DNA of 64,000 nucleotides. It comes from Lophium mytilinum. Its lineage: Eukaryota. Below are positions 15,062 to 50,961 of this stretch, piece by piece. A program made the translations under genes and the position numbers. Numbering within the stretch: the stretch's first letter is position 1; the number at the start of each line of letters is the position of its first letter. Location of the stretch: positions 1,374,801 through 1,438,800 of the forward strand of contig MU004184.1 in NCBI GenBank assembly GCA_010093605.1, read 5' to 3'. Under the pieces are notes generated by a model. The model worked only from the letters and a program-made list of their open reading frames with translations, searched no databases and had not been told where the DNA came from.

Positions 15062-16787
15062 TTACGCCTTCTTAGCAAGACGCGCTTTGGACGCCTTTAA
15101 CGCAGCCGACAACGCAAACTGGGTGTCGATGCCCTCAACCCGGTGTGTAGAGTTGATGTTTTTGACGAGAGTAATTTGGAAGCAGGTAGCAGAGCCCTGG
15201 CGAGATATGATAGTTGAGTAGGCGAGGAAGAACTCCCAAATCTGGATGAACGATTAGTATCAAGATTCGAGAATGAACTGAGAGAATTGGCTTACCCTGA
15301 ACCACCTAATGCCATACTTTGCAACGACCTTGTCTTTGTTCGCTATCCAGTTCCTATACCAGCGCCACAACGTAGCGGAGTAGTGTACGCCAACAGTGTC
15401 AACTTGCTTGACCTCAAAACCCGCACCTTCAAGTTTGTCGATCACGAAGCCTAGCGGAGTTGATGCATCGGCGCCAGGGAAAATGTGTTTGTTCATGAAT
15501 AGACCCCAGATGAGATCCTCGTACTGCCAGCTCTTCCTCAAGCCAGCGATCTGCAGGAAGAAGATACCGTCGTCGTCAAGCATGTTGTAAACCTGTGAGA
15601 AGAAGCCGCCCAAGTGTCGTACGCCAACATGCTCGGCCATTTCGAGGCAGGTGATCTTGTTGTACTTACCTTCTGGGACAGTGATGTCGCGGTAGTCCAT
15701 GCAGAGGATGCGGCTCTGATCTTCGGCGATGCCAGACCGGCGAAGACCGCTGTTTCCCCAGGCAGTTTGGTTGCGGCCCAGTGTGATGCCCGTGACGTGC
15801 GCACCGTAGTTGACAGAGGCAAACTTGGCCAAGGTGCCCCACCCGCAGCCGATGTCGAGCATGCGTTCGCCTGGCTTGACCTCGATTTTCTCGCATACAA
15901 TGCCGAGCTTGTTGTCCTGGAGCTGTTCAAGAGACTCCTCCTTATTGATGTCAGAAATTATACCAGACGTATAAATCATACGTGGGCCTAGGAACCAGCC
16001 ATAGAAGTCGTCACCGCGGTCGTAGTGGTCGCGGACCTGTTCCTCGTCTGGTAGAGGTTAATGTATACTCAAGGTTTGATTTAGAGTAGAAGGAGCAATG
16101 AGAATGTCCACGTGCCTTGGCTGCGAGTGTGCAGGATTACTTCTGGCATCATACCAGTCAAGAAGTACTTAATGAGACCGATGGTGAAGCGGAAGTTGAC
16201 CCAGTCGTGGCGCTGCTCCAAGATTTCAAGACAATCGCCATTGAAGTCCACTTGACTATCAAAGTACATCTCATGGAAGGTCTCCATGGGAATGGTCCGC
16301 TTGCCCTGGTATTTCTCCTTGTCCTCTGCCTTGTGGAAGGTGAGGTAATGCTCGATGGGCTTTCCGGGAAACGAGGCCTTGTCAGTTTTGCGGGGCGACA
16401 ATGCAGACATTGTCATCCAGAAAGCGGCGAGGAGAGGCAGGTCGACAATTATGCCAATGAACACAGCCGTCTTCCATCCTCCACCAATTTTCCAGGACAA
16501 GTATAGCGGGACACCACCCAGGATGGTGAAGAGCAAAATATTAGAGAATTGCTCGCCTCCAGGGCCGTCTGCGGGAAGGGGTGCATTCTTTATGGCTGGG
16601 TACTACAGGAGAATGAGTATCAAAATGCGTTATCTGCGTGGTGTGGCTCAATGGCTCGAAAGGACAGTGTGCATACCGAAGTGGTCCTCACACCGCAATC
16701 CTGTGCTGGTGGAGCTGGGGACGGAGCTGGGGGCGTCTCAATCCACGCGAAGGACTCCTCAGAGGAGGCCTGGCTTTTTTCCGACAT
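15062..16787 (-). CDS. MTS1: Sphingolipid C9-methyltransferase (cyclopropane-fatty-acid-synthase family)
   Basis: SAM motif MLDIGCGWG, plus CLEMAEHVG and HIFPGAD, an N-terminal TM segment and NAPLPADGPG. Three short introns. Confidence 0.93.
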
Positions 16788-17893
16788 GGCGTAGAATATG
16801 GGAGAAGCTCAGGAGGAGGAGGCAGAGCTGCGAGGTTTTGGAGGCGGTGGGCGTATCAATCAATTATCGGGGTCCATGGCCCAAGCGCAACATTTGCTGG
16901 GATCGGCTGTGTGTGCGCAGCGTAGCTCCAACGGCGGCGCTACAAAGTTAGCACTCGACTGTTACAGACATAGCGAGGTCGTAACTTGATGCAGCAGTTA
17001 AAGAAGATTGGAGTTGGGACAGATCGCACAAGGTTGTATAACTATTTACTACTTGATGTATCAATGTTGATTGGCGTCGGAGAGCAGCATGCAGGAGCAT
17101 GTAAACTGACTACGGCAACGGAACCTAGGTAGCGCAGCCAGATCGTAGCACATGATACCTCTCCTAGAACGCGTTCCGGACCGCTATAGATATAGCCCGT
17201 TTGCATGTGCTGAATTGGATGTTTCGGCTTTACCTTTGTTTGACACTGTCTGAGGTGCTCCGACACACTTTGAAAAAACTTGGGTGCTATGTAAAGCTCC
17301 CACACTGTGAGGCAGCTATATTCAATTGGGAATTCGCGATACTTGTAGTATAAAATACCTGTTTCCCAGCTGTATAATGTTCAGGTTGTATGGAGAAGGC
17401 GCCCCCAAACGTAGCGACCTTCATTTCCACAACACAGACTTTTAGGATTTGCCTTTCCTAGCAGATTGATGATCCGGGTCGTTGTGACTCTTGGGAACTC
17501 TGAACCTTGGATTGGGACCCCGAGCACCAAACTTTGTGTTTGACTTGACGCTGATAGGCGCAAGACGGCGGATAGGGGATTGCGGTGACGAGGTTCAATC
17601 AGCCGTCACGTGCAACAGGGATCAGCGCCAAGATTGAGCCAGGTGTTTCTTATACATTTCGGGAGCCTCTACTCAAGCTAGGACTCCTTTCTCACAACCC
17701 ATCACCACAACACACCTCTCTTTTTCCTCTTCCCTTCTATTCAGCGCATGGGCGTTTGTCTCTACGGGGTCTTATTCTGCTTCTGCTCTTTCACCTGCCC
17801 TAATTCTCCGCCACCTGGCGCCCATTGACAAGGTCGAGCTGGCCTGCCTGCAACCCCCGTTCATCAACACAATCGCCTCGACCAGCCGCCAAC

Positions 17894-20800
17894 ATGGCTC
17901 CTCTACCCATAGCCTTCCAAGAACTGCTCTCGGTAAGCTAATCTACGCGCCTCACTTGTTGCGCGCTTTGCTAACATCTGTGACCTCTCAGTTAACTGCG
18001 GTCGACATCCTCGTACGTGTCTTCCTCCGCTGACCCCCGAAGCGCAAACGGGCCCGTTACTAACGCAACAAGCAGCCGGCTTCGATAGGATTCAACTCAT
18101 GCGTACGTGACAAGTTGCCCAAATTAACGCGCTCCGAAGCTTACGTCTGCCTAGACACTCGAGTCCGATAGCTACATCTGCGTACGACAGCAGGCCGAAA
18201 ACACAGCATCACCCGAAGTCATCATCATCGACCTCAAGAATGGAAACAACATCATTCGGAGGCCAATCAAGGCCGACAGTGCCATCATGCACTGGAACAA
18301 ACAGATCATTGCGCTCAAGGCACAACAGCGCACTCTCCAGATCTTCAACTTGGAAGCCAAGGCCAAGCTGAAGTCCACCACAATGAACGAGGACGTGGTG
18401 TTCTGGAAGTGGTTCAGCGAGACTAGCCTGGGTTTGGTGACAGATAACTCTGTCTACCATTGGGACATCTTCGACCCAGCCCAGGCCGCGCCTCAGAAGA
18501 TGTTTGATCGGACACCCAACCTGATGGTACGTTCAAACATGCCCGGAATAGGTGAACTCCAGCTAACGCATGAACTCCTAGGGCAACCAAATCATCAACT
18601 ATCGAGTCAGCGATGATGGAAACTGGTCAGTAGTCGTCGGCATTACCCAGAACCAAGGCCGCGTGGTCGGAAACATGCAGCTATACTCGAGGGAGCGGGG
18701 CATTCCGCAAGCCATCGAAGGACATGCCGCTGCATTCGGCTCCATTCGATTGGAAGGTGCTCCTGCTGATACTAAGCTCTTCACATTCGCAGTCCGCTCC
18801 GCGACGGGAGCTAAGCTACATATCGTTGAGGTTGACCACGCGCCCTCGAACCCTCCATTCCCAAAGAAGGCTGTCGATGTCTACTTCCCAACTGAGGCTA
18901 CGAATGACTTCCCTGTCGCAATGCAGGTGTCGAAGAAGTACAGCGTGATCTACTTGGTCACAAAATACGGATTCATTCACCTGTACGATCTAGAAACCGG
19001 TACCTGCATATTCATGAACAGAATCTCAAGCGAAACTATATTCGTCACCTCTTCGGACTCAGAAGGAGCCGGCATTATCGGAGTGAATAGGAAGGGACAA
19101 GTCCTGTCGGTCAAGGTCAACGAGGATACAATTGTTCCATACCTCCTGCAAAACCCGGCGAACGGAGAGCTTGCATATAAGCTTGCATCGCGCGCTGGTC
19201 TCCCCGGTGCTGACAACCTATACGAGCAACGATTCGAGGGACTCATCAATTCTGGCCAGTACATTGAAGCCGCACGAGTTGCGGCGAATTCTCCGAGAGG
19301 TTTCCTACGAACTCCTAAGACCATTGAACGATTCAAGGCGGCTCCTCCACAAGCTAACCAGCTTTCTGTCATCTTGCAATACTTCGGCATGCTCCTGGAT
19401 AAAGGGGCATTGAATAAGTATGAGACTCTGGAACTTGTAAAGCCTGTTCTGGCGCAAGGACGCAAACACCTCCTCGAGAAGTGGCTCAAGGAGGACAAAC
19501 TCGAATGCACAGAAGAGCTCGGAGATCTTGTTCGTTCCCAAGACCTGACTCTCGCCTTGATGATCTACCGGAAGGGCCTGGTTCATCAGAAGGTGGTGGC
19601 AGCTCTTGCGGAGCTTGGTCTCTTCGACAAAATCCTGCCTTACAGCTCAGAGAATAACTACCACCCGGACTACACGGTTCTGCTCCAGCACATTGTTCGT
19701 ATCAACGTCGAGAAGGGAGCAGAATTCGCCTCATCTCTGGCGAAACACCCATCTGGGCCACAAGTCGATATTGACCGTGTTGTAGACATTTTCACGTCTC
19801 AAGGAGCGTACCAGCAAGCCACCGCGTTCTTGCTGGATGTGCTTTCAGGAAACAAGCCCGAACAAGCTCATCTGCAGACAAGACTCCTTGAGATGAACTT
19901 GCTCAACGCCCCCCAGGTCGCCGATGCTATCTTGGGTAATGAGATGTTCTCTTACTACGACAAGCCACGCATTGCCCAGCTTTGCGAGAACGCAGGTCTA
20001 CTGACGAGGGCGCTAGAGCATAACGATGATCCCGCTGCCATTAAGCGTATCATTGTGCAAACCGATAAGCTTCCGGAGGAGTGGCTAATAACCTACTTCG
20101 GCCAGCTTACGGTTGAGCTGTCCCTGGACTGCTTGAACGAGATGCTGAAGGTCAACATTCGCCAAAACCTACAGCCAGTCGTGAGGATCGCTCAGAAATA
20201 CTCGGATCTACTAGGCCCGACTCGTATCATCGAACTCCTCGAGAAGTACAGAACTGCCGAAGGCTTATACTACTACCTGGGTGCAATTGTTAATCTGAGC
20301 GAGGACAAGGATGTCCACTTCAAGTATATTGAGGCAGCAACCCGGATCGGCCAACTCAACGAAGTCGAGCGCATCTGCCGAGAGAGGTAAGTGTACTATC
20401 TGAAAACTCATCAGACCACCCCAGATAGCGTCAAACTACTCTGCTAACACTCTTTAGCAACTTCTATAATCCAGAGCAAGTCAAGAACTTCCTCAAGGAA
20501 GCTCAGCTCACCGAACAGCTGCCACTCATCATTGTTTGCGACCGATTCAACTTTATCCACGACCTGGTACTCTATCTCTACAAAAACCAGCAGTTCAAGT
20601 CCATTGAAGTCTACGTTCAACGTGTAAACCCTTCCAGAACTCCTGCTGTTATCGGCGGTTTGCTGGATGTGGATTGCGAAGAGAGCATCATCAAAGGCCT
20701 GCTTCAGTCCGTCAACCCTGCATCAATACCAATCGATGAGCTCGTTTCTGAGGTCGAATCGCGTAATCGTCTCAAGCTGTTACTTCCCTTCCTCGAGGCC

Positions 20801-23335
20801 ACGCTTGCTAGCGGCAACCAGCAACAAGCTGTTTACAACGCGTTGGCCAAGATCTACATCGACAGCAACAATAACCCGGAGAAGTTCCTGAAGGACAACG
20901 ATCAATACGATTCCTTGGTCGTCGGTAAATACTGCGAGAAGCGTGATCCAAACCTCGCGTATATCGCCTACCGCAAGGGACAGAACGATCTGGAATTGAT
21001 CAGCATCACCAACGAAAATGCCATGTTCAAGGCTCAGGCTCGTTACCTCCTCGAGCGTGCTGATGAGGAAATCTGGCTCTTTGTGCTCAACGACAACAAC
21101 ATGTACAGGCGATCATTGGTTGATCAGGTCATCTCCACTGCCGTTCCAGAATCCCAGGACCCGGACAAGGTTTCCATCGCGGTCAAGGCTTTCATCAACT
21201 CAGATATGCCTGCTGAGCTGATCGAATTGCTTGAGAAGATCATCCTGGAGCCTTCTACCTTCAGTGACAATCCTACCCTACAAAATCTTCTCATGTTGAC
21301 TGCTGCCAAGTCTGACCGAGGCCGAATGATGGGATACATCCAGAACCTGAACAACTACGCTCCGGATGAAATCGCCGCACAGTGCATTGAGCTTGGGATG
21401 TACGAAGAAGCATTCGAGATCTACAAGAAGCACGACGATCATATCAATGCTTCAGGCGTTCTCATTGATCACATCGTCAGCGTCGACAGGGCACAGGAAT
21501 ATGCAGACCGTGTCGATCTTCCCGAGGTGTGGAGTAAAGTAGCCAAGGCTCAACTCGATGGTCTGCGTGTCACTGATTCCATTGAATCTTACATTCGTGC
21601 TGGCGATGCCTCGAATTTCCTCGAAGTCATTGAAATCGGTACACATGCTGGAAAAGATGAAGACTTGATCAAGTTCTTGAAGATGGCGAGGAAGACTCAA
21701 CGCGAGGTGCCAATCGATACCGCGTTGGCTTTTTGCTATGCTCGAACTAATCAGCTTCCCGAGCTCGAGGATTTCCTACGTTCGACTAACACCGCTGATG
21801 TTGAAGCATCCGGAGACAAGGCGTACGAAGAGGGTTACCACGAGGCGGCTAAGATCTTCTACACCAGCATCTCAAACTGGGCTAAGCTCGCGACCACTCT
21901 CGTTCATCTTGAGGAATATCAAGCGGCAGTCGAGTGCGCTCGCAAGGCTAACAGTACAAAGGTCTGGAAACAGGTCAACGAAGCTTGCGTTGCTAAGAAA
22001 GAATTCCGTCTTGCCCAGATTTGCGGTCTCAATCTTATTGTTCACGCTGAAGAGCTTGCCGACCTCGTCCGTCAGTACGAGCGCAATGGCTACTTTGATG
22101 AACTCATTAGCCTTCTTGAGGCTGGTCTTGGTCTTGAGCGCGCCCATATGGGCATGTTCACGGAACTTGGAATTGCTCTATCGAAGTATCACCCCGACCG
22201 TGTCATGGAGCACCTGCGTTTGTTCTGGTCTCGTATCAACATTCCCAAGATGATCCGCGCGTGCGAGGAAGCTCATCTGTGGCCTGAATTGGTCTTCCTC
22301 TACGCTCACTACGACGAATGGGATAACGCGGCACTTGCTATGATGGAACGCTCGTCAGATGCTTGGGAACACCACTCTTTCAAGGATACGATTGTCAAGG
22401 TCACCAACTTGGAGATCTACTACCGCGCGTTGACACACTATCTCGAGCAACAACCATCGCTGCTGACCGACCTACTGCAAGCCCTTACACCTAGGATCGA
22501 CGTGAACCGCGTCGTGCGAATGTTCAAGAACTCGGATAACATCCCACTGATCAAGCCATTCTTGCTCAACGTTCAGCCCCAGAACAAGCGCGAGGTCAAC
22601 AATGCCATCAACGACTTGTTGATTGAGACTCTTGACTATAAGACTCTCCGTGATTCGGTCGAGAATTACGACAACTACGACCCGGTGGAACTGGCGCAGC
22701 GCCTTCAAGGTCACGACTTGGTGTTCTTCCGCCAGATTGCAGCAAACATCTACCGCAAGAACAAGCGGTGGGACAAGTCGATTGCGCTCTCCAAGCAAGA
22801 CAAGCTCTTCAAAGACGCCATCGAGACTGCGGCACTGTCTACCAAGCCAGATGTCGTTGAAGAACTACTCCGCTACGTAAGTTGATTCAACTCCATGAAG
22901 AAAGAACTACCACTAACATTATATCCAGTTCGTGGACATTGGTAGCCGGGAGTGCTACGTCGGCATGCTATATGCTTGCTACGACCTTATTCGCCCTGAT
23001 GTCGTTCTGGAAGTCTCATGGCGCAACGGTCTCAATGACTTCACGATGGTAAGCGTTCACTGCTATTTTTATCGCTATCACAGAGCTGTACTAACAACTA
23101 ATAGCCATACATGATCAACTTCCTGAGCCGACAAGCGGCCACGATTGAAACGCTCAGGATTGACAACGAGGAGCGCAAGGCTCGGGAGGCGTCGCAGCAG
23201 AAGGATGAAGAGAGCACTCCCATCTTAGGCTCTCGGTTGATGCTCACCCAAGGACCAGTGGGTGCCCCGTCCCCAGGCCCGTACGGCCAAGCCAATGGAA
23301 TTGCTCCCCAGCCAACTGGGTACCGGGCTTTCTAA
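17894..23335 (+). CDS. CHC1: Clathrin heavy chain
   Basis: [10 protein letters not shown]...TLESD...[13 protein letters not shown] start and CHCR repeats (e.g. [18 protein letters not shown]). Micro-exons at 17992-18012 (21 nt) and 18076-18102 (27 nt); 7 introns. Confidence 0.99.
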
Positions 23336-24476
23336 ATAAGATACCGCGATAGACCGACAGGGCGGGGCGGGACGTGTCTCGGACGAATGAAAAGCGTGTT
23401 AATTATGCTCACATACCTTCACATTACGGCCCGGGATGGAGTGGGATGGACGGATGGGTTTCTGAGATTTGACGAGGGCGATCGATGGGTTAGGTGGTTG
23501 CATTTGTGCACTAGGCTTCACCCACTACTGTATTTTAGTCTGTTCATCTGCTGATTTCGAATTGCTTTTCCCTCACTCAACATTCTTTGACATGGTACCA
23601 TGGCGGTGAAGCAGACACGCAGTCCACAGGCAAGACATCCCGAGCAATGGGCCGTGAGAAAGCGCAGCCCTAGCGGAGATCAGGCGTCGCAGGCATCAAG
23701 CTAGTGGTCAGGTCCCAATGCGCATATACAGCGCGCATCGCTGCCGACGGCACAATGGACCTGATTTGCTCTGTAAATGACGCTGGCAGGCCCGTTCGCC
23801 GGCTACAGAGCGTTCAAGTGCCAGAAGTTGTCCGGGCGATACCGACACAGACGCCCCGACCTGTTCCGCTGATCCGTCGTGCTGCCGAGCTTGTGTCGGG
23901 ATGCCCCAGATCTGCGCGGAAAAGAGCGTCCTGGGGAAAGCTGTGAGGCGGCGAGACATTGAGGTGTGCTCCCCCACGGTATTGATAGTTGTTGAACCAA
24001 GAGCGTGGAGGGAGACGGGCACGGAGACGACGCAGCTTGGTCACGCCGGCGGCATGAAAAATGAGATGCAGCCGTGGGGAGCACGACAAGACCAATAGCA
24101 TGTCCAGAGGCGTGAGGCAGCTTTATCGAGCGTATTGCTGGGGTCCGATGCGGGAGGGGTAGAATAGGGAGCTCTGGCCAGCTCCTGCCGCCGCCTTGAG
24201 CTTATTCCTTTTGCTCTGTCTGGGTCCACGGTACTCATCAAAAACCCTCAACCGCCGCCTTGATTGTGCACTTTCTCGAGATTCAGTTTGCTCATTCTTG
24301 CTGCCAGAACCACACTCGCGTCCCAAGCTACTCTGCCTACTGTGGGGCACGCTTCCGCGTGAAGTACTTAAGGAACCGGCCCCTCCCCCCTCCAGAGCCC
24401 TCGCACCCCTTCGCCGTCACCACTACCGTCGCAGCCTCGAAACTCTAGCTGCAGCGTCTCTGCCTTGTTGTGCAAT

Positions 24477-27400
24477 ATGTCTGGTCTTGCAATTGACCAA
24501 GCGGCCGCCGCGCAGGCTATCATTGACGACGAGCACGATACCCAGCACGATGAGCATCACATCCACCGGCACTCGGTTCACCACCGGCTGCGGGCAAGCA
24601 GCTCTATCATGCAATTGAAGAAGATTTTAGGCACGCCTCTCTTCTCCTGCACCTCGTCCAGCTCTATGGCTAACATTTTGAAGTTGCCAACCGCGGCGAG
24701 ATCCCAATTCGCATCTTCCGTACCGCCCACGAGCTGTCCCTCCACACCGTGGCCGTCTACAGTCATGAGGACCGCCTCAGCATGCACAGGCAAAAGGCCG
24801 ACGAAGCCTACGAGATTGGACACCGGGGACAGTACACGCCTGTTGGAGCTTACCTTGCCGGCGACGAGATTATCAAAATTGCCCTTGCCCATGAAGTAAG
24901 AATATATTCAACACGGGGACGACGATGTCAAGCTGACCCGAAATAGGTCAATATGATACATCCAGGCTATGGATTTTTATCTGAGAACGCTGAATTTGCG
25001 CGCAACGTGGAGAAGGCAGGTCTCATTGTAAGTCTCACAGCAGCATCTCCTTGTATCGCGTCGGCAGCTCGCAGTGTTTTTGTTGAGGGCGGGGCGGAGT
25101 CCGAGGGGCATACGGCCGCCGGCCCAATTGACGCAGCTCGGCCTGTCTCAGCGGGACCCTTGGCGAGATCGACCGCGTGGGACACAGCATGCCCATTGTT
25201 ACTTTTGCTACGCGTGGACACCTGCTCACCGAATCTAGTTTGTGGGACCGTCCCCCGACACCATTGATGCCCTTGGCGACAAGGTCTCCGCGCGCAGGCT
25301 CGCCGTCAAGTGCGACGTCCCGGTTGTCCCCGGCACCCCCGGGCCGGTCGAGAAATTCGAGGAGGTCAAGGAGTTCACTGACCAGTATGGCTTCCCGATC
25401 ATCATCAAGGCTGCCTTTGGCGGCGGCGGGCGAGGCATGCGTGTGGTCCGAGAGCAGGGAGAACTGAAAGAGGCGTTTGAGCGCGCGACGTCAGAGGCCA
25501 AATCGGCATTCGGCAATGGCACCGTCTTCGTCGAGCGCTTCTTGGACAAGCCGAAGCATATCGAGGTCCAGCTGCTGGGCGACAACCTCGGCAACGTCGT
25601 GCATCTGTACGAACGTGACTGCAGTGTGCAACGCCGGCACCAGAAGGTCGTCGAGCTTGCTCCCGCCAAGGATCTACCCCAGGAGACCCGTGAGGCTATC
25701 CTCAACGACGCCGTCAGGCTCGCCAAATCGGTCAACTACCGCAACGCAGGCACCGCTGAGTTCCTCGTCGACCAGCAGAACCGCTACTACTTCATCGAGA
25801 TCAATCCAAGAATGTAAGTCTCACCGCTCCTCTATAGCCATGCCAAGCTGCTATGCTCCGGAGGTATCACTGCCAAGGTATTGTGTTGCTGATCCATAAG
25901 ACAGCCAAGTCGAACACACCATCACTGAGGAGATCACCGGCATCGACCTAGTCGCCGCCCAGATCCAGATCGCCGCTGGTGCGTCGCTCGAGCAGCTTGG
26001 TTTGACCCAGGACTCCATCTCCACCCGCGGCTTTGCCATTCAGTGCCGTATCACCACCGAGGATCCTGCCAATGGCTTCGCCCCGGACACGGGAAAGATC
26101 GAAGTCTACCGTTCTGCTGGCGGCAACGGTGTTAGGTACGTCTCATCTCGCGCAGTTCATACAGTCCTAGGCCACAAGTCTGGGCACGGGCTCGCTCCAA
26201 CTTGCCCACCCAACACCACTGTTGGGGGTAGCCTGGTTGCTGAGTAGGCAATTAGTCAAGAAGCAGCCTAATCTGCACTGCTTGAAGCTTGACATCGCCC
26301 CTGCGTCTTCGAAACCCTGTGGGGGTACCCCAAGCAGTGGCGGACCAGTGTGCCCAGACGTGTGGCCTGTCACTATAGCTGGCGCAACCCACTAATCTCA
26401 CATCTCGTAGACTGGACGGAGGCAACGGCTTTGCTGGTGCCATTATTACCCCCCATTACGACTCCATGTTAGTCAAGTGCAGTTGCCATGGCTCCACATA
26501 TGAGATTGTACGACGAAAGATGCTTCGCGCCCTCGTTGAGTTCCGTATCCGTGGCGTCAAGACCAACATTCCCTTCCTGATCAAGCTTCTCACCAACCCC
26601 ACTTTCATCGAAGGAACTTGCTGGACCACCTTCATCGACGATACGTAAGTTGCCAAGCTGGCTTGTACTCACACCAGAATTACCACTGACTTCTACTAGC
26701 CCTGCGCTTTTCGACTTGGTTGGCAGCCAGAACCGTGCTCAGAAACTCCTTGCTTACCTTGGTGACCTTGCCGTCAATGGCAGTCAGATCAAAGGCCAGA
26801 TTGGTGAGCCCAAGTTCAAGGGCGAAATCATCATGCCAGTTCCCCACGATTCCAATGGCAACAAAGTCGACACTTCACGGCCTTGCCAGAAGGGATGGAG
26901 GAATATCATCGTCAAGGAAGGTCCTGAAGCCTTCGCCAAGGCGGTTCGAGCAAATAAGGGGTGCCTGGTCATGGATACAACATGGCGCGACGCTCACCAG
27001 TCGCTCTTGGCCACCCGTGTCAGGACTGTTGACATGTTAAACATTGCCACAGAGACCAGCCACGCCTACAGCAATGCTTGGGCACTTGAGTGCTGGGGTG
27101 GAGCTACTTTCGACGTAGCCATGCGATTCTTATATGAGGATCCGTGGGACAGACTGAGGAAGATGAGGAAGCTTGTACCCAACATCCCCTTCCAGATGCT
27201 TCTCAGAGGTGCCAATGGTGTTGCGTATTCATCGTAAGTGTCACGTGCTTTCGCGATTCTCACGTGCTAACAATTATAGGCTTCCCGACAATGCCATCTT
27301 CCACTTCTGTGAGCAGGCAAAGAAACAGTACGTAAGCCCCCAATATAGATAACCGGTTTCCCAGCAATATTTCTGTTTGAAAACTACTCAGAGAGTATTC

Positions 27401-29317
27401 CAAGGCAACCACTGTCCACTGTACGCCACTGCTTGGGGTACCCCCATAGGTTTCGAAGACTTGAGGGCGATGTCAAAGTTCAAGCAGTGCATATTAGACT
27501 GCCTCTTGACTGATTGCCTGCTCAGCAGTCAGGCTTACCCTAACAGTGGTGTTAAGTGGGTAAATTGGACAGTGGTGTCTTGGAATTCCCTAAAGGAGTG
27601 TTTTACGCAGCATAACTTGTCCTTAATATCGGTTTCCTTACTCTGGTTTTGAAAAATTTGCTGACTTTATTGCCACCTTAAGCGGAGTCGATATATTCAG
27701 GGTATTCGACGCCCTCAACGATGTTGACCAGCTGGAAGTCGGTGTCAAGGCCGTCCTTAAGGCTGGTGGTGTGGCTGAAGGCACCGTCTGTTATTCGTAA
27801 GACCCTGATTACCCTTACATCCTGAACAGCCTACTGACTGGTTTGTAGCGGTGATATGCTGAACCCCAAAAAGAAGTACAATCTTGAGTACTACATGAAC
27901 GTGGTCGACAAGATTGTAGGCATGGGTGCACACGTTTTGGGCATCAAGGACATGGCCGGTGTCCTAAAGCCCAGGGCTGCTACCTTGCTTATTGGAGCTA
28001 TCCGAAAGAAGTATCCGGATCTTCCAATCCACGTCCACACCCATGACTCTGCCGGTACTGGTGTCGCCTCCATGGTTGCCTGCGCTTATGCTGGCGCTGA
28101 TGCTGTGGACACAGCGATTGATTCGATGAGTGGTATGACTTCCCAGCCCAGCGTTGGCGCCCTCCTGGCTTCCCTCGAGGGTACTGATCATGACCCTGGT
28201 CTCGATGGACACATGGTCAGGCATCTGGACAGCTACTGGGCACAGCTCCGCCTGCTGTACTCTCCCTTCGAAGCCGGTCTTACTGGCCCCGATCCCGAAG
28301 TCTACGAGCATGAAATCCCTGGTGGACAGCTTACCAACCTCATCTTCCAGGCCTCGCAACAAGGTCTTGGCGAGCAATGGGCCCAAACTAAGAAGGCTTA
28401 CGAGCAAGCCAATGACCTCCTCGGCGATATTGTCAAGGTCACTCCCACCTCCAAGGTTGTCGGCGACCTGGCCCAGTTCATGGTCTCGAACAATCTCTCC
28501 TATGACGACGTGCTCGCAAAGGCCGAGCAACTCGACTTCCCCTCCTCCGTCCTCGAGTTCTTCGAGGGCCTTATGGGCCAGCCCTACGGCGGATTCCCCG
28601 AGCCCCTCCGCTCGCAGGCCCTCCGTGACCGCCGCAAGATGGATAAGCGCCCCGGCGCTTACCTCGAGGCTGTCGATCTCGTGAAGGTTAAGGCTGACCT
28701 TAAGTCCAAGTGGGGCGATGCCACCGAGTGCGACGTCGCGTCGTACGTCATGTACCCCAAGGTCTTTGAGGACTACAAGAAGTTCACGACGAAGTACGGC
28801 GACCTCTCTGTTCTGCCGACACGCTACTTCCTCGCCCGTCCTGAGGTTGGAGAGGAGTTCCACGTCGAGCTGGAGAAGGGCAAGGTGCTTATCCTCAAGC
28901 TTCTTGCCATCGGCCCATTGAGCGAGCAGACTGGGCTGAGGGAGGTGTTCTACGAGATGAACGGCGAGGGCCGAACCGTCACAGTCGAGGACCAGCACGC
29001 GGCGGTTGAGAACGTCAGCAGGCCGAAGGCCGATCCGACGGATAGCAGCCAAGTCGGCTCGCCAATGGCTGGTGTGGTCGTTGAGGTGCGCGTACATGAC
29101 GGCTCGGACGTCATGAAAGGAGATCCGATTGCTGTGCTCAGTGCTATGAAGATGGTAAGTTCTCTCACAATCATTCCAGCTAGCTTGACAAAATGCTTAC
29201 ATCAATTCACAGGAAATGGTCATCTCGGCACCGCACTCCGGCAAGGTCAGCAACCTAGGCGTGCGCGAGGGCGACTCAGTCGGCGCGCAGGACTTGGTGT
29301 GCAAGCTTGTCAAGTAA
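24477..29317 (+). CDS. PYC1: Pyruvate carboxylase
   Basis: [29 protein letters not shown] and the biotin site AMKM. Ten introns: 24631-24683 (GC-AG), 24896-24946, 25028-25238, 25814-25904, 26136-26410, 26645-26699, 27234-27279, 27328-27682, 27797-27848 and 29155-29212. Confidence 0.99.
26136..26410 (+). mobile_element. Introner-like intron, family B (PYC intron 5, 275 nt)
   Basis: Inverted repeat AGGCCACAAGTCTGGGCAC (26169-26187) / GTGCCCAGACGTGTGGCCT (26350-26368), 18 of 19 matching. Homologous to the MFS intron at 50256-50578 and to the insert in PYC intron 8. Confidence 0.8.
27328..27682 (+). mobile_element. Introner-like intron, family A, carrying a nested 161-nt insert (PYC intron 8, 355 nt)
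   Basis: Ends GTACGTAAGC...TGCCACCTTAAG align end to end with the MFS intron at 49494-49293. The insert at 27412-27572 is homologous to the family B core. Confidence 0.9.
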
Positions 29318-30453
29318 ATGGATGGCTAATTTTTAGCACGGTGAAAACTTCAACAGCGCTGCGCTCGGTTGTTGGATTGAGGTTTATGTTGGTACGATAT
29401 TGATGCGCTAGGGTGTGATGATTGGTAGTCGGTTGAATTGACCGCCGCGGGTCTGGTTATGTAGCTAGTTCTATAACGATATGAAGATCCTTATTCATAC
29501 AGTACTTGACTCTTGGCAGGGCTCGTTGGACTGAAGGTGGTAGTCTATGCTGACACCGTCTGAGGTGGCCCGAAGAGCTATCTGGCTTGTCCGAATCACC
29601 TTTTTCCCATTCACGATGCAATACCAGGGGACCTCAAGCGGTGCCAGACATGTGTACATACGTAACACCAAAGCAGGTTTAGATCTATTCTATCGCAGAT
29701 CTTAGAAAATAATCACCCATTGGCGCATTGCCACTGCTTGTTCGACAAACCCTGCGAGGGTTGCTGTTGGTATGTTGAGGCGGCCTGGCTCCTGCTTTAC
29801 GCACTTTGACGCAGCTGTAATCACTTCTTTTTCTATAGTCTAATCTGATGTGAGATGGATGATCCCATGATGGTATACTGATTCACAAGCTTCGTGAACC
29901 CAAATTCTTAGATGGCAGTATAAATGTGCACGGAGTGGCTCCCGTACGTTCAGATTAACGATGATGCTTTACCTGTTAATTTATATACTGATTGAGGATG
30001 TCTGTCCCACAACCCGGCCTCCGCAATCCGATTTAGCCTCCTTATAGAAAGCACTACGTTTGGGCTTGATTCTCGCTCTCTTCTAATACCATGCTGAAAG
30101 GATGTCCTAATCGCACAGACTGGCTCACGTTGATTCATCTTTGCGGCGTCCGTGTTGTTTCAGAGCTGTGATCTCAGGAGAAACGCCTATCGATACAGGT
30201 CCACTGTCGAACGATATCAAGTCAAGGCCTGATTTCCACTCTCTTTCAATGTAATGCTTACATCGCGTTGAAAAAGCGCGGAATGGCCTCCATACACCCA
30301 AACGCGCTAGAACATAATTCATATCAGATCTAACTGCTAAACTATCTCGCAACAAGCCGTGTCTTAACTACAACCAATGCAGCTCCTCTAATCCTACAAC
30401 CAAGTCACACCGCAACCACGATAAAACCACGGTTCCAATTCCATCACTAGCAA

Positions 30454-30665
30454 ATATGTGCACACCGTTTTAGTCCGCAAGCCCACTGAACCCAGGAACG
30501 CAAGCAGGTCTGAAATAACAGGCGCCGTCCGCCCCCGAACAACCCCACAGAGCAGGGAGACTTCCCCTTGCGGGGTTCCTCACTTCCGCTAAGGGGGGGC
30601 AGGGTAACGAGCGTTGATCTTGCGCGTGTGCGAAATCGCACAGAGGTAAAGCGTCGGCCAACATG
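30454..30665 (-). ncRNA. Candidate structured box H/ACA-type RNA (snR30/U17-like layout)
   Basis: 5' hairpin TGTGCG/CGCACA, H-box-like AGATCA (30620-30615), a long G:U-rich hairpin capped by CCCC-GCAA-GGGG, a 3' segment with TTCCTG...TAAAAC, and ACA at 30459-30457. The 5' end is uncertain. Confidence 0.45.
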
Positions 30666-31006
30666 GGGAGGAGTTGGAGACGCTTTGGTGTGTGTAGACC
30701 CGCGCTGGGTTGGGAGCATAGAGGGAGATAGGGAAGATGAGGGACGGGAGCACTAACAGGGTGGAGGAATGGGGGGATCTGTTATAGGTAAAGGGTGACT
30801 TGGTAGTTGAGAAGGCGGGGTAGTTTTAAAGGATGTTGAAAGTGTCATGTGTAGATAGAAGATTCGTATTGAGCGCTTGCGATGCTGGAAACCCTAGATG
30901 ACGCCTGCTATGCTGGTGAGTAGAGTACAAGTTATATACAACATCTAAATGCGTGTGCATCTTTTATACATGCCAACGAAAGGAAAATCGTGAACGGAAT
31001 ATAATT

Positions 31007-34000
31007 TTATTCCTCTGGCGACTGTGCAGTGATTTCTTTGATCTTGTCGGCCATGCCTAGGTCACGTATGTCCCACCCAGCTTCTTTGGTGGCCCAGTCT
31101 TTGCGTTCACCTAGGATGGCGAGGTTGCTGCGCGAAGCACCCTGTACGAGGTACTTGTCCGCTACCGCCTTGATCTGTTCGGCGGTGACGTCGAGGAGAA
31201 GCTCTCTCCGCCTTTGGAGCATGTCGTCGTCGATTCCAGAGAGGAAGAGTCGCATGCCCTCCTGGCTGACGCTCTGTGGCGCGTCATAGCCCTGGAAGAC
31301 GCTCAGCTTGGCCTCTTCCAGGTCTTGAGCTGTCCAGGTGCGATCGCGGGCCCAGGCGCCGGCTTCAGTCATGATCTTGATGGTGTTTTGGGGGTTCGGA
31401 TCACGATAGCTGTAGTAGCCAAATACGCCGCCGAGGGACCGGCTATAAGCCCCACCTCCATACGCACCGCCCTTCTCACGAATCTCGTGATGTAGATGCT
31501 TGTGAGTCAGGAGCTGAGCTAGAATCTCCAGCGGAGCTCCTGCGTCATTGGTATATGGTACAGTGGGAATGGCGAGACCAGCATAGTAGACCTGATATGG
31601 TAGGGGAAAGAACGATTTGGAGTTTCGGGGGTACTGTATTGGTTCAGAGGTTGAGGTGACGTTAGAAGATTCGGTCGGTAGCCCAGTCAAAAAGCGTTGC
31701 AAGGCCTCCTGGTTTGACGTTGAGCTCTCATTCCCGCAGTTGAGAGCTACCCGAAATGTCTTGCTATTGGAGATGGCAATGGACTGTATGGCCTTCAACT
31801 TCTGTATAACGTCATCCAGTGACTCTGAAACGGGACGCGATGCTAGACCAGTGGTGAGTTTGATCTGTGACAGGCCACCCGTCTGCTCGTTCAGGCGTCC
31901 AATCGGAGTCAATCCAGCCTCTGCAAACGTGCGAGCAAAAGAGTGACCGGTTTCTGCAATGGAATTGACAGCTCCACTTGCAGAACTCTGGAGTAGTTCC
32001 CGGATCTGCTTTTCTGCCTCAGATCCGTCGAAATCTGTCTCGAAGATGACTGTCCGAAGTAGGTCATACATTGCGGGCACGTTTCGATCTAATGCATAGC
32101 CAGTGAAAGAAAGACCTTCCTGGTACGACTCCACAGAATCCGGAGAAGGCGAGGAATGATAGCCAACGGATATCCCGCCAGTCTTGAGCTTAATCAACTC
32201 TTCGAGCTGTTCCATAGTCTTGTCTTTGGTGCCAAGTCGCATTATCGCGCTGCTGAATAAAGGGATCATTTCTCGTAGCTCATCCGGGAGATTATCGAGT
32301 TGCTGGATAGCCCGGAAATAGGTCAGGCCGTTGGTGTGAGCTTCCCGCCACTGGACCTTCACATCGCCTAGGGAGCTGTGTCGAACTTCTTTCCTTTCTT
32401 TTTGACGAGGTATGTCTTTGACATGCACACTTGGGAGGCAGCTGAGATCTGCATTTCTTGCAGTCTCTTGGACCTCTAAGAGTTCGAGCTCTCGCTTCTC
32501 TAGGTATTGTTCGGCCTCTTCTTTGCTTGAGAATTTCTCTGTGGCCTCGGAAATTTTATCCACAAGTCGCTGGCTCTCTTCGGCAACTAATTCTTCGCTG
32601 TATGTTTCCGATGGCTCCATGGTGAAGGTGAGCGTGTTGTCGTTTAGTAGATACTTATCGAGTAGACTCTCAAGATAGCCTCCCTTGGCATAACTGTTTT
32701 GGAAAGCGGAGACAGTTTCTTGCCAGGCTAAAGCATCCATCGGGTCGACACCGTTGAACCAGCCAGGTTGTAGTCTCTGCATGACACCCATACCAAAATG
32801 GGCCGTCTTATGCTTCAAGGAAAGCTCAAGCTGATGTAGGATACCGTCAACTTTGATTTTATCGAACCCGTTTGTCCTGGCTTCCGCAAATGTTTTGGCG
32901 ATCGCTTCTTTGACTTTAGGAACGTCTTCCGCCTTGACACCATTTAACCCAACGGAGAAAACGCCAACTTTTCCAGCACTATCATACCCAGTGTTTGGGC
33001 TGAAATCTGCACCAAGCCCTGATTCAATAAGGTTGCGATAGAATGGCGAACCGTAACCGTCGAGCAAAAGGTTACTCAATAGTCCTAGAGAGAAGTTTTC
33101 AAGAACATCCGTAGTGTCTCCCATGAGCCATGTGGTGGAGGTCTTGTATTGCATATCTGGCGGCATGAGGAGATCTGTCGGTCCCTTGACCGTGACAAAC
33201 TTCGGACCATCATCCAGACTTATTGGCGCTTTAATGTCGCTGTCCACTTGTATTTGGCTGAATTGACCTAATCTAGCATCGATTTCTTTGAGATGGTCGG
33301 CCAGTGGGAGGTCGCCATATGTGAAGACCTTTGCATTGCTCGGATGGTAGTGGTCTGCGTGGAACTTCCGCAATTGCTCCCATGTGAGATCGGTAATCTT
33401 TTGTGGGTCGCCGCCCGAATTGTTGATATCTGGAAAGAGGTGGTCCTGGAATCTGATATAGAACAGATAGCTCGCATCCGACATTTGGCCCTTCATTTCG
33501 TTGTAGACAACGCCTTTGAAGACCAGTTTCTTTTCCTCTCCCCCTCCTCCTGATGCGACTGCTAAAGGGTTCTCGGGGCCTATTCGCCATCCCTCCTGCG
33601 TGAAGTCGTTTGAGTTGAGTAACGGATGAAGAGTCGCATCGAGATATACCGACATCAAGTTCCTGAAGTCTTGCGCATTTGTGGTGGCGAAAGGATAGGA
33701 AGTATGATCGGCGGAAGTGAAGGCGTTCATGAAATTCGACAGTGACCGAGGAAGCATCTTGAAGAAGGGATCGCGAACGGGGTATCTAGAGTTCGTTTAG
33801 CGTGTATTCACAGGGTTATGAAGAGTGCACCAACTTCTCGCTGCCACAGAGGGTAGTATGTTCCAAGATGTGCGGAACCCCAGTATCATCCGGTGGATTC
33901 GTCTTGAAGCCGATGGAGAAGACATTGTTGGAGTCGTCGCGGGCGATGTGGAGGTAGTCGGCACCGGTTTTGTCGTGCTGAAGCTGGAAAGCCGTGAGCT

Positions 34001-34184
34001 CCAGCTCAGGGACCTGTTTGACGCGCTTGAGAGTGAAGCCATGAAGTTGTTCTCCGATTTTTGGCTGGCCGGAGACATCGCTCACTGCGGCAAATCCTCG
34101 ACGGAATGGACGGCCCGTCGAGAGTCTCGAGGACGGCGCAGCAATGCGCGACGCCCATAGAGATGATCGAGAGCACCGAAGCAT
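31007..34184 (-). CDS. CYM1: Mitochondrial presequence protease (M16C pitrilysin family)
   Basis: [11 protein letters not shown] inverted zinc motif, GVVYNEMKG and IREKGGAYG, with an Arg/Ser-rich presequence. Intron at 33834-33786. Confidence 0.97.
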
Positions 34185-35104
34185 GGCAAACTCGTAGATG
34201 TGAAGTATTGACAGCGTGAAGAAAAGAATCGCGGGAGCATGACGCGATGTAGTGGGACTCGAAATCGTAGAGTGACGAGGGGCCGGAAGTTACGGGTGCA
34301 TAAGATGCTGAACCTGCATAGCGCTTCCCGAGCAGCCTCGAACGCCCGCCATAGCCCTTCTAGTTTAAGAAGTACTATTGCTTTAACGGCTGTTATATTG
34401 TAGAGATGTATATAGCGGAATAAGTGTCTTGCTTAGTATATAGCTGTAAGCTTATATCTTTGTAAACTTATAGGTTCTATACTGGCTAGTTAGAAATATG
34501 TAATATTACGTAATTATTACTTTATGGGGGCCTCTTAAACGGTGTATCGAATTGACTTCAGCCTGGAATCAAGACGACTGGACGAGGAATCGCTATTTGG
34601 ATGGGATATAAGGACTCTAGTCAATCTGCTACTGCTCTGAGAAGCGTGTCGCCTTGTTGCTCTTGCGGGTGGCCTGGTTGTCAAGTGAAGCATCTCATCA
34701 CCCCTTGGTTCAGACTGAAGTCTCTTGCCGAGCGCCCTCTCCACTCCGATCGTGCACTGTTGGTCTTGTCGCAAGTCTTTCCTCACCTGCATGCGACCCC
34801 CAATAGAGCAACGATTCTTCTCTCCCGCTTCTCCTCTCGTGTTGAAGCTTCCATTCTTACCGCACGACGAGCTTCAGTGCGCCATCGAGGACTCAGCTTC
34901 ACCCTTCAACCCGACGACTCCGAGAAGCCCGAACAACATCACGACGCCACCCTCCCGCCAAAGCTTCTAATCCGCCCGGCCTGTTGCTTGGTCCTATGTG
35001 AACATCGACACGCTGCCACTGAAGGCTGTTGGGTGTTGAATCTGGGCGGATTGCAGACGTCATTTGGGTCTGCAAATTGAAGTCCTAGATTCGGGTCTAA
35101 GCAT

Positions 35105-48628: not shown

Positions 48629-50961
48629 TCAAAGCTTCAATTGGAACCTCGGATTTGTCCGAATTCGCTCACCGTATATCTTAAAGATAACGGGGACGGG
48701 GATCAAGGCAAGGGCAACGAAGCCTAGAAGGGAATTACCCCAGCCAAGACCGAGCTTGTTGTACATTGATAGACCTGCTAGAGGAAGTAGAGCACCGAAG
48801 ATGGAACGGATGACCGTATTGGCGGCCATCGCGGAAGCAGCGTGCAGAGTAAAGGCATCAACGAGGTAAGTTTGGATGGTCAGCTGTGAGAAATCCGTTA
48901 GCTAAGCCCACTGCTATAATTGAAGAGTGTTCACTCGGAAGGACACATACAAAGTTGCTCAGCATTCCTATTCCGACAAACGATGTACCAATGAGTGGGA
49001 CAATCCAGTGGACGTGTTTATCTGTTCCCCAGCCGTACATAAAGAGCCCGACGGGCAAGCAAATGCCGCCAGGAACAGTCAATATCATTGGCAGCCGATC
49101 TTCCGGCTTCAGAGCCTTGCCCTTCGCCTTCTGTCTCTTGAGGACTCGATCGCTAGCAACACCTAGAATGGCGAGGCCGAGAATCATACCTATGCCAGTG
49201 GCAATGTAGGTAAGTCCGACTGTTCCAGACGAGAAATGATAGTTTTCTTCAAAGACAAAGGTGATGGTCGTGAACAGGAGGTAGAGTATGCCCTTAAGGT
49301 GGCAGTAAAGTTAGCAAATATTTCAGAACCAGAATGAGGAAAACGATATCGACTTCTTGAAACAACTGTCGCGTGAGACACTTCTTCGGGGGATTCCAAG
49401 ACACCAATATGGTTGTCTCAGAATACTCCCTGAGTAAGTTTTCAAACGAACAAATTGCTGGGAAAGTTTTCATCTTTATCGTGAGCTTACGTACGTACGC
49501 AACGGCCGAGTAAAAGGACATGCAAAAGACGATAGGTGATGTCAGGAGCATCTTCGTGGGCCGCACAATGCTGAGACGGAACAGCTCCTTCGGCGAGATG
49601 GGTGACGTGAGCTTGGATCGGAGATTCGGGTTTCCGGTCTCTTTTCGAAGCCTTGCGGCTTTTCGTTCCAGGATTACGGGTGCGTACGTCTCCCGCAAGA
49701 AGACGAAAGCTAGAATAGTGACAACACCGCCCTGTGCGCCAGTGTTAGTATAAGGGGAAATGAAAAAGTAATCGGAAATAGGCTCAGATAAAACATACCA
49801 ATATCGCGATTAGGTAGAATACCCATCGCCATCCTTTTGCTTGTACTAGAAAACCCCCAATTACTGGCCCCACTACAGGTCCTATGAGTGGGCCCATAGC
49901 CCATATAGCCATGGCGCCGCCTCGTTTTTCCACGGGCATCAAGTCTGCGATCGTTCCGCCTCCAATCGTAAGAGGGGCAGATCCGACTGAGCCTTGAAGG
50001 AATCGGAATCCGACAAGCATGTTGAAGTTGCTCGACACTCCACAGGCAATAGTGAAGATGATGAAGAGTATGTTGCAGGCATGGTAGATCCACCTTCGGC
50101 CGTAGAGTTCACTCAGAGGTGCGACAATTAAAGGTCCGAACGCGAAGCCGAGCAGGAAGACGGATACGACGAAGGCTGCAAGAAGGTCTGATTTCTCGTG
50201 AAAGCCAGCCATGACTTCAGGGACGCCAGGGGCGAACATAGAGGATGCGAGAGGGCTGATGAGGTCAGCTGTAGCTCTGACTGGGAATAATAGTACTGGG
50301 CCGTAAGTCTGAGCACACGGTTTTATCACCGCTCAGGTAGCACTCCTAACAGATGAACGCCACTTCGTCGCTTTCGGTTGCAAGCTAGAACGAGATGACA
50401 CTGTCAAGAGGCTACCCGTTGCCAAAGAGCCGGTCTGTCAAGATGCAGCCCGGATTCCATTTCTTGAGAGTTGAGATCGCGTCTAGATTTTATGGAACCC
50501 ACAGGAGTGCCTCGAGCAGCGGCAGGCAAGTGTACAAAGACTCGTGGCTTGTTATGAACGAGGATGGAATGTACTCACGTCACGAAGGTGATAGATGAGA
50601 GAATGGCGATATTTCCCCACTTCAAACCATTCGAAAAGTTCATAGGGTTCTCTGGATCATTTGGGCCGTCCCAAAATATCACATTCGGGTCTGATTCCTC
50701 GGCACCCTCCTCTGGCAGCTTCTCTGTTGTATCCCCCGCATCGTCTATCTCCCCGCTAGACGTGGTGGGATGGCTGATTGCACCTTTTTCGAGGTCGCCC
50801 TTTTCGTGGTCGTGAATTGACGAGCGCTGTCCTGGGGTGTAGACACCTAGATTGGAAGGTACGTCCGCATCGTGGCCTTCTTCGTAGGCAAGCTCGAGCC
50901 TTGGGTTATCAAGGTCATGAATGTGATACGCCGGATTTGAGTAGGAGCCAGGAGTCGCCAT
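48629..50961 (-). CDS. MFS drug:H+ antiporter (DHA1 family)
   Basis: [28 protein letters not shown] and ETYAPVIL motifs. Four introns, including 50578-50256 and 49494-49293. Confidence 0.96.
49293..49494 (-). mobile_element. Introner-like intron, family A, empty form (202 nt)
   Basis: GTACGTAAGCTC...CTTTACTGCCACCTTAAG with a central hairpin GAGACAACCA-TAT-TGGTGTCTT. Homologous to PYC intron 8. Confidence 0.9.
50256..50578 (-). mobile_element. Introner-like intron, family B (323 nt)
   Basis: Nested stems GCCACGAGTCT..GTACAC / GTGTGC..AGACTTACGGC and GCACTCCT / AGGAGTGC. Plus-strand 50399-50555 is collinear with plus-strand PYC intron 5. Confidence 0.75.

Follow-up and report, generated by a model that had tools for sequence, protein, structure and literature searches.

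Long, hairpin-rich introns that are related in sequence and lie in unrelated genes are known in the Dothideomycetes as introner-like elements, on which van der Burgt reportedly published in 2012. As regards the spread of such elements in ascomycetes, a fungal introner inserted in two orientations would strongly support a DNA route. Fungal introners, those of ascomycetes included, have been described as an outlier without terminal inverted repeats (TIRs) or target site duplications (TSDs) and as probably RNA-based (PMC9860276), and the sister (stw)introns of the Hypoxylaceae as symmetrical, devoid of TSD and functional on the coding strand only (PMC8469720). Fungi also carry MITEs (miniature inverted-repeat transposable elements) that duplicate a TA target; these measure 81-524 nt with end repeats of 24-61 nt, have copy numbers from the tens to the hundreds, have been placed in Tc1/mariner and are frequently found within or close to genes, also in introns (PMC3227409), and the mimps measure 180-220 nt with ends that begin AGT (PMC5579170). 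Here we describe a 64,000-nucleotide stretch of Lophium mytilinum, called the window hereafter (assembly GCA_010093605.1, contig MU004184.1, positions 1,374,801 to 1,438,800), in which intron 5 of a pyruvate carboxylase gene (PYC, plus strand) and intron 1 of an MFS transporter gene (DHA1, minus strand) share a repeated unit that we call family B.

An earlier note on this DNA had proposed that the two introns are collinear on the plus strand, their core being hence opposite relative to splicing, and this proved correct; what they have in common is a unit that can form a hairpin. To explain it, the note offered either an interior flipped between fixed arms or a MITE-like TIR unit that inserts both ways, and it concluded that either one favours a DNA-level process over reverse splicing. 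The MITE-like unit agrees with what we found, namely 28-nt imperfect inverted ends with TA, many contigs with unrelated flanks and both orientations relative to the genes. The flip is not needed, as the asymmetric inner part of one arm travels with the interior and the outer parts of the introns are unrelated, and the conclusion on reverse splicing does not follow from a unit without splice signal whose ends lie 24 and 33 nt away from the splice sites. Our reading, to which we give a probability of about 0.75, is that family B is an abundant Tc1/mariner-like MITE carried as a passenger in ordinary introns, in either direction, and uninformative on the origin of its host introns; as it is a passenger, the mechanism of intron gain is not informed.

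According to this reading, family B would be a non-coding MITE of about 214 nt with imperfect TIRs, (C/T)AGT...ACT(G/A) ends and a TA target duplication, whose copies, oriented either way, would have inserted into ordinary introns some 60 nt long, downstream of the 5' splice site and upstream of the branch point, and would leave passively with the host intron at splicing. The copy in DHA1 intron 1 would be old, decayed and by accident antisense, and that in PYC intron 5 younger and in the direction that we call sense, their opposite orientation reflecting orientation-blind DNA insertion and not an inversion inside an introner. A parent of the Tc1/mariner superfamily would fit these features. 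The observations that carry the reading are made directly: the boundaries of the repeat, the unrelated flanks, the two orientations, the precise splicing of PYC introns 5 and 8 and an intron 5 position shared with other fungi.

Like the Fusarium mimp (PMC5579170) and the TA-flanked EFT-m of Epichloe (PMC3227409), family B is non-coding and about 200 nt long, with 25-35-nt inverted ends and TA flanks; it further has in common with them the (C)AGT ends, tens to hundreds of copies, unrelated flanks, genic or intronic sites and either orientation. However, its end sequence is not the mimp motif, and it differs from both in that one interior stands without end repeats and in that no parent transposase was found among the 23 long open reading frames (ORFs) of the window.

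The strings quoted in the earlier note were located at 50437-50552 (DHA1 intron 1) and 26255-26371 (PYC intron 5). When the whole introns were aligned plus to plus, the local score was 36 compared with 17.5 ± 2.2 for shuffled sequences, none of 300 reaching it, and in the opposite orientation it was 22, a value reached by 10 of the 300. Without their arms the two interiors scored 29 (shuffles 16.0 ± 2.3, 0/500), and reversed they scored 18, which is not significant (114/500). The match is weak, about 65% over some 117 nt, and blastn does not report it at E ≤ 0.01, but the plus/plus collinearity exceeds chance, so that the non-significant alignment named beforehand as a refutation was not what we observed. 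A third copy of the interior, devoid of terminal repeats but matching far more strongly, lies in PYC intron 8 (27417..27569, minus strand), inverted relative to the intron 5 copy of the same gene; blastn pairs 26196-26350 of intron 5 with inverted 27569-27417 of intron 8 at 84.5% over 155 nt (E 3e-43). The DHA1 interior aligns with that of PYC intron 8 at a score of 24 in the consistent orientation (4/500 shuffles) and of 17 in the other (148/500). The orientations thus agree as DHA1(+) = intron 5(+) = intron 8(-), and because of these alignments the interior in PYC intron 5 runs, relative to splicing, opposite to those in PYC intron 8 and DHA1 intron 1, that is one copy sense and two antisense to the host gene. 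PYC intron 5, PYC intron 8 and DHA1 intron 1 all fold as long imperfect hairpins (z -3.5, -3.1 and -4.2). An nhmmer profile built from the three copies detected no further family B copy in the window (best other matches E 0.012 and 0.061), blastn of the window against itself gave nothing beyond the three known pairs, and a 23-base word of the B interior had no match in a metagenome scan.

In PYC the unit occupies 26160..26377 on the plus strand and consists of a TA (26160-61), a 214-nt element (26162-26375, CAGT...ACTA) with no ORF of note, and a second TA (26376-77). Its ends, 26160-26187 and 26350-26377, are 82% complementary over 28 nt, in which the TA is counted, and no inverted repeat of the window is longer; they read TACAGTCC... 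and ...CACTATA, i.e. TA-CAGTCC... and ...CACTA-TA. The copy in DHA1 intron 1 was placed at 50288..50554 (plus strand, antisense to DHA1) by its interior and by global alignment, with arms at about 50299-50318 and 50531-50550; its ends are decayed, off by 1-3 bases, and uncertain by a few bases. As to the TSDs that the earlier note proposed to look for outside the arms, a TA is readable on each side of the PYC copy, and the contig ends described below fit it, but in the DHA1 copy, where a TA duplication is presumed, the flanks are ambiguous by 1-3 bases and not cleanly readable; an empty site was not observed. A transposase with matching TIRs, sought among the same 23 long ORFs, was not found.

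Contigs of four sequencing runs were aligned to positions 25900-27800 at a likeness of at least 80%. The run called X1 holds DNA-like contigs of the same organism, the listed pieces on single-copy flanks showing no other letters, and 544 of its pieces were placed on this 1.9-kb stretch. Their summed depth is 15,644-35,036 over 26156-26411 compared with 155-177 on the adjoining exons, a ratio that is not a copy number, and at five sites between 26210 and 26301 another letter is shown by 48-69 different contigs. Similarity ends on the left at 26160 (14 contigs), 26194 (19) and 26213 (6), and on the right at 26374 (35) and 26377 (7). At the outer ends, 26160, 26374 and 26377, the agreement of the flank consensus is 0.39-0.43, i.e. 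the flanks are unrelated. In the group ending at 26194 a longer spacer is followed, further out, by the arm motif; this group therefore marks an indel and does not define a limit of the unit. The bin 26092-26155, which includes the first 20 bases of intron 5, is at single-copy depth. From the clusters of contig ends and this single-copy intron start we conclude that the mobile unit is TA + 214 nt + TA, short of both splice sites, and that many copies of uniform size exist with unrelated flanks; the right-hand pattern would fit a unit between TA flanks that usually ends in another base than the PYC copy does. A relative represented by another run, X4, also carries family B copies, at about 87-92%; X4 skips all four PYC introns and is RNA-like, hence uninformative on the presence of these introns in its DNA.

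Two side observations concern the structure of the copies. In X1 and X3 contigs some MITE copies skip the central 74-76 nt in the region 26241-26318, and others repeat 41 or 71 nt; both kinds of variant bring to mind the shortened symmetrical introns of the Hypoxylaceae. At another locus (X1 contig record 4, X3 record 19) two MITE copies of opposite orientation lie about 2.3 kb apart, and this locus is also present in the RNA-like run.

PYC intron 5 (26136..26410, plus strand), which interrupts an Arg codon in phase 2 and runs for 275 nt from GTACGT to TAG, can be decomposed into a 59-nt host intron and the family B insertion. A 2305-nt contig of run X3, which is RNA by the tool's guess only, skips 275 nt at 26132>26408 (GT..AG when the cut is moved three places to the right), and it also joins the PYC exons at 26644>26700, 27233>27280 and 27327>27683, the last join skipping 355 nt. 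The contig crosses introns 5, 6, 7 and 8 exactly, with no other letters on the exons. These joins set intron 5 at 26136-26410 and intron 8 at 27328-27682, both precisely removed by splicing. Between the unit and the splice sites lie 24 nt and 33 nt, and the unit contains neither a splice nor a branch site; without it and one TA, the intron measures 24+2+33 = 59 nt and retains GTACGT, the CTAAT branch site and TAG. DHA1 intron 1 (50256..50578, minus strand, 323 nt, GTGAGT...CAG, phase 2), host of the decayed copy, is left with about 59-61 nt bearing GTGAGT, CTGAC and CAG; only its splicing restores the DHA1 reading frame, the protein at the junction being ...ITFVT|PLASSMF.... An introner would be similar up to both splice sites and, if of the fungal type, would have a single orientation; family B ends at 26160 and 26374-26377, and one copy is sense and two are antisense.

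Other fungi carry an ordinary short intron at the very site of PYC intron 5. In a metagenome search 80 PYC loci of fungi were obtained, whose exon 7 is 81-92% identical to that of the window, and 70 of them cover this site. Fifty-five of the 70 are intronless there and 15 have an intron within 6 residues; in three (L001 with 58 nt, L023 and L028 with 50 nt and identical to each other) the base and the phase are exactly those of intron 5, so its position is not new to the lineage, and the remaining nearby introns lie 2-13 bases away. These short introns at the exact site favour a host intron in PYC that was there before the insertion. DHA1 intron 1 would likewise be older than the copy it holds.

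The earlier note had also claimed that the outer parts of the two introns resemble each other on the sense strand. We observed that the motifs on which this was based (GCCACRAGTCT, GTGTGCYCAGAC and ACTAT) fall within the unit's terminal inverted repeats, and these look the same whichever way the unit lies. Outside TA...TA, the 5' parts of DHA1 intron 1 and PYC intron 5 score 10 (shuffles 9.2 ± 2.1, 214/500 as high) and the 3' parts 8 (10.9 ± 2.4, 496/500), i.e. they are not significantly similar. Unrelated outer segments had been named in advance as the outcome that would indicate an ordinary MITE insertion, and this outcome was obtained. All that the introns share outside the unit is GTTCA, adjoining it, at the same distance of 24 nt from the 5' splice site; the recurrence of GTTCA|TA at this distance may reflect a target preference, a coincidence or a trace of common outer sequence.

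The host of the end-less interior, PYC intron 8 (27328..27682, plus strand, 355 nt), belongs to a different family, which we call family A and in which the B interior is nested at the tip of the hairpin. Its partner in family A, DHA1 intron 3 (49293..49494, minus strand; 202 nt long and in phase 0), lacks the B interior and has TAT at the hairpin tip and an unremarkable fold (z -1.1). Between the two introns blastn aligned 27328-27411 with 49494-49410 (78.8% of 85) and 27573-27682 with 49406-49293 (75.4% of 114). The similarity thus spans the first to the last intron base, both copies are sense, the flanking exons are unrelated and the two genes, also unrelated, are 22 kb apart. These features mark fungal introner-like elements, and family A is an introner-like unit distinct from family B, here read base by base in two copies. 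Family A has further copies in the contigs of the organism, the summed depth of X1 on the A arms being 1,002-2,500 compared with 160-177 on the flanks. An X1 contig from another locus holds the B interior and the right A arm with a match ending exactly at 27682, so that the composite is present at a second locus at least. At the site of intron 8, 79 of the 80 orthologous loci are intronless; the remaining one, L045, carries an unrelated intron of 112 nt there, the base and the phase being identical. The proximity of two members, 22 kb apart in a family with few copies, suggests local spread of family A.

That family A might be an intron with a complete B-type MITE inside was considered and rejected, because the inner arms of A are unlike the end repeats of B: the A arms flanking the B interior are not similar to them (199-714 of 1000 shuffles equal the scores), and neither is the centre of DHA1 intron 3 (837 and 991 of 1000). 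The end-less interior may stem from a nested insertion that later lost its two ends, or from recombination or template switching between hairpins, or it may be a progenitor state of the MITE.

Several points weigh against the view of family B as a passenger MITE. The TA duplication is cleanly readable in one copy only, and among the 23 long ORFs of the window no transposase family was matched and no autonomous parent was found. A canonical cut-and-paste insertion fails to explain the B interior of intron 8, which has no B end repeats. All three copies of the window are intronic and none is intergenic, above the expectation for an unbiased MITE (n=3 only), and two A and three B copies are clustered in two genes 22 kb apart. 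The distance to the 5' splice site is exactly 24 nt for both full copies, and GTTCA|TA precedes each of them. Finally, the exact position of intron 5 is shared by only 3 of the 70 covering loci, for which a parallel gain is possible.

Some of these points could be taken to mean that family B is itself an introner acting at the DNA level, which makes new introns in exons in either orientation and brings or recruits the outer parts of 24 and 33 nt. Besides the intronic location of all three copies in two genes 22 kb apart, PYC has here the most introns, in the aligned part, among the orthologous loci compared, and a small set of introners is listed (6 elements in Supplementary Table 5 of PMC9860276) for Mytilinidion resinicola, the closest named protein match. 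Against this, no splice or branch site lies within the unit; its flanks vary among copies; and no residues are missing at the exon junctions, which means that the outer parts are not former exon. With 50-58-nt introns at the exact intron 5 position in L001, L023 and L028, we consider an introner of this kind quite improbable.

A flip inside an introner is the second alternative, in which both introns would be copies of one whole-intron element that always inserts in sense, the interior of one of them having been inverted by recombination between the arms. Long hairpins are liable to such rearrangements. In its favour, GTTCA|TA lies in both introns at a distance of exactly 24 nt from the 5' splice site, and intron 8 demonstrates that the B interior can exist apart from its end repeats. 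Nevertheless, the parts outside TA...TA are not significantly similar, and dozens of contigs lose similarity at the ends of TA...TA and not at the splice sites. Moreover, the DHA1 copy has, immediately internal to its right-hand arm, an asymmetric stretch that pairs in alignment with the PYC copy's right-hand arm, both read on one strand; the arms and the interior have therefore turned together, and short introns occupy the PYC intron 5 position elsewhere. A flip is in our opinion very improbable.

That the DHA1 match would be a chance resemblance of two GC-rich hairpins and no family B copy at all is hardly credible, in spite of an identity of only ~65% missed by blastn at E ≤ 0.01, since none of the 300 and 500 shuffles reaches the scores, in one orientation only, the interior of intron 8 gives an independent match in the same orientation (4/500 shuffles) and the arms keep the same order of motifs.

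The reading of family B as a passenger MITE leaves the introner-like family A apart from it, and the part that still deserves attention is the MITE interior without ends that lies nested in that family. We can imagine, as an unlikely case, that the B interior is a hairpin module common to a TA-flanked multi-copy MITE and to family A, which extends from splice site to splice site. If this were true and one had descended from the other, the root of ascomycete introner-like elements would be a DNA transposon: a hairpin derived from a MITE would, in an intron, have seeded a spreading intron family, or the hairpin of an introner would have gained transposon ends and become a MITE.

Compared with the introner-like elements of Dothideomycetes, the introns described here are similarly long, hairpin-rich, sequence-related and located in unrelated genes, and family A fits them (first to last base, sense), whereas family B differs by stopping short of the splice sites, by its two orientations, by its TA flanks and by a host position in PYC that is not new. 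In Collemare 2013 (PMC3609843) and Collemare 2015 (PMC4457414), term searches revealed no mention of orientation, MITE, inverted repeat or transposon. With the (stw)introns of the Hypoxylaceae (PMC8469720) our introns share the dominance of inverted repeats, two related introns in one gene and short forms without centre (here the skipped 74-76 nt), but the former are whole-intron units without target duplication and family B is a sub-intron unit with TA flanks. Algal MITE-type Introners (PMC9860276) are also TIR/TSD DNA elements found in genes in both orientations and spliced out; in those, unlike in family B, the element is the intron and supplies or recruits splice sites, while the splice signals are here all found outside the element, in unrelated sequence of the host. 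The evidence for a DNA route that a two-orientation fungal introner would bring is therefore not supplied here, the two-way unit being a passenger MITE and the sole whole-intron unit of the window, family A, staying in sense. Introner families can be mimicked by MITEs that lie within introns, and in surveys such MITEs can hide or inflate them.

The window is a gene-dense ascomycete stretch, with long ORFs that match clathrin heavy chain, a PreP-type peptidase, an amino-acid permease and condensin subunit 2, among others. The plus-strand gene at ~24.4-29.4 kb was identified as PYC by matches to CPSase_L_D2, HMGL-like, PYC_OADA and Biotin_lipoyl, and the minus-strand gene 48630-50961 as an MFS transporter by its exon 2, which matches MFS_1 and is 99% identical to a protein assigned by its source to M. 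resinicola, a Dothideomycete. The five-exon model of DHA1 gives an open protein of 557 residues, with all four junctions free of gaps when compared with seven homologues.

PYC intron 3 (211 nt) forms no hairpin (z = +1.9). Between residues 77 and 387 of the aligned fragment, the PYC gene of the window has at least five introns, exceeding all 80 orthologous loci, many of which have none there. Four bases upstream of the intron 5 site, 273-nt introns are present in two of these loci (L042:59-333 and L051:2487-2761) and fold as rod-like hairpins over nearly their full length (z -5.4 and -4.6), and a 215-nt intron at the same position in a third (L005:2495-2711) is not such a hairpin (z -0.2). Hairpin introns thus recur near the PYC intron 5 spot in different lineages.

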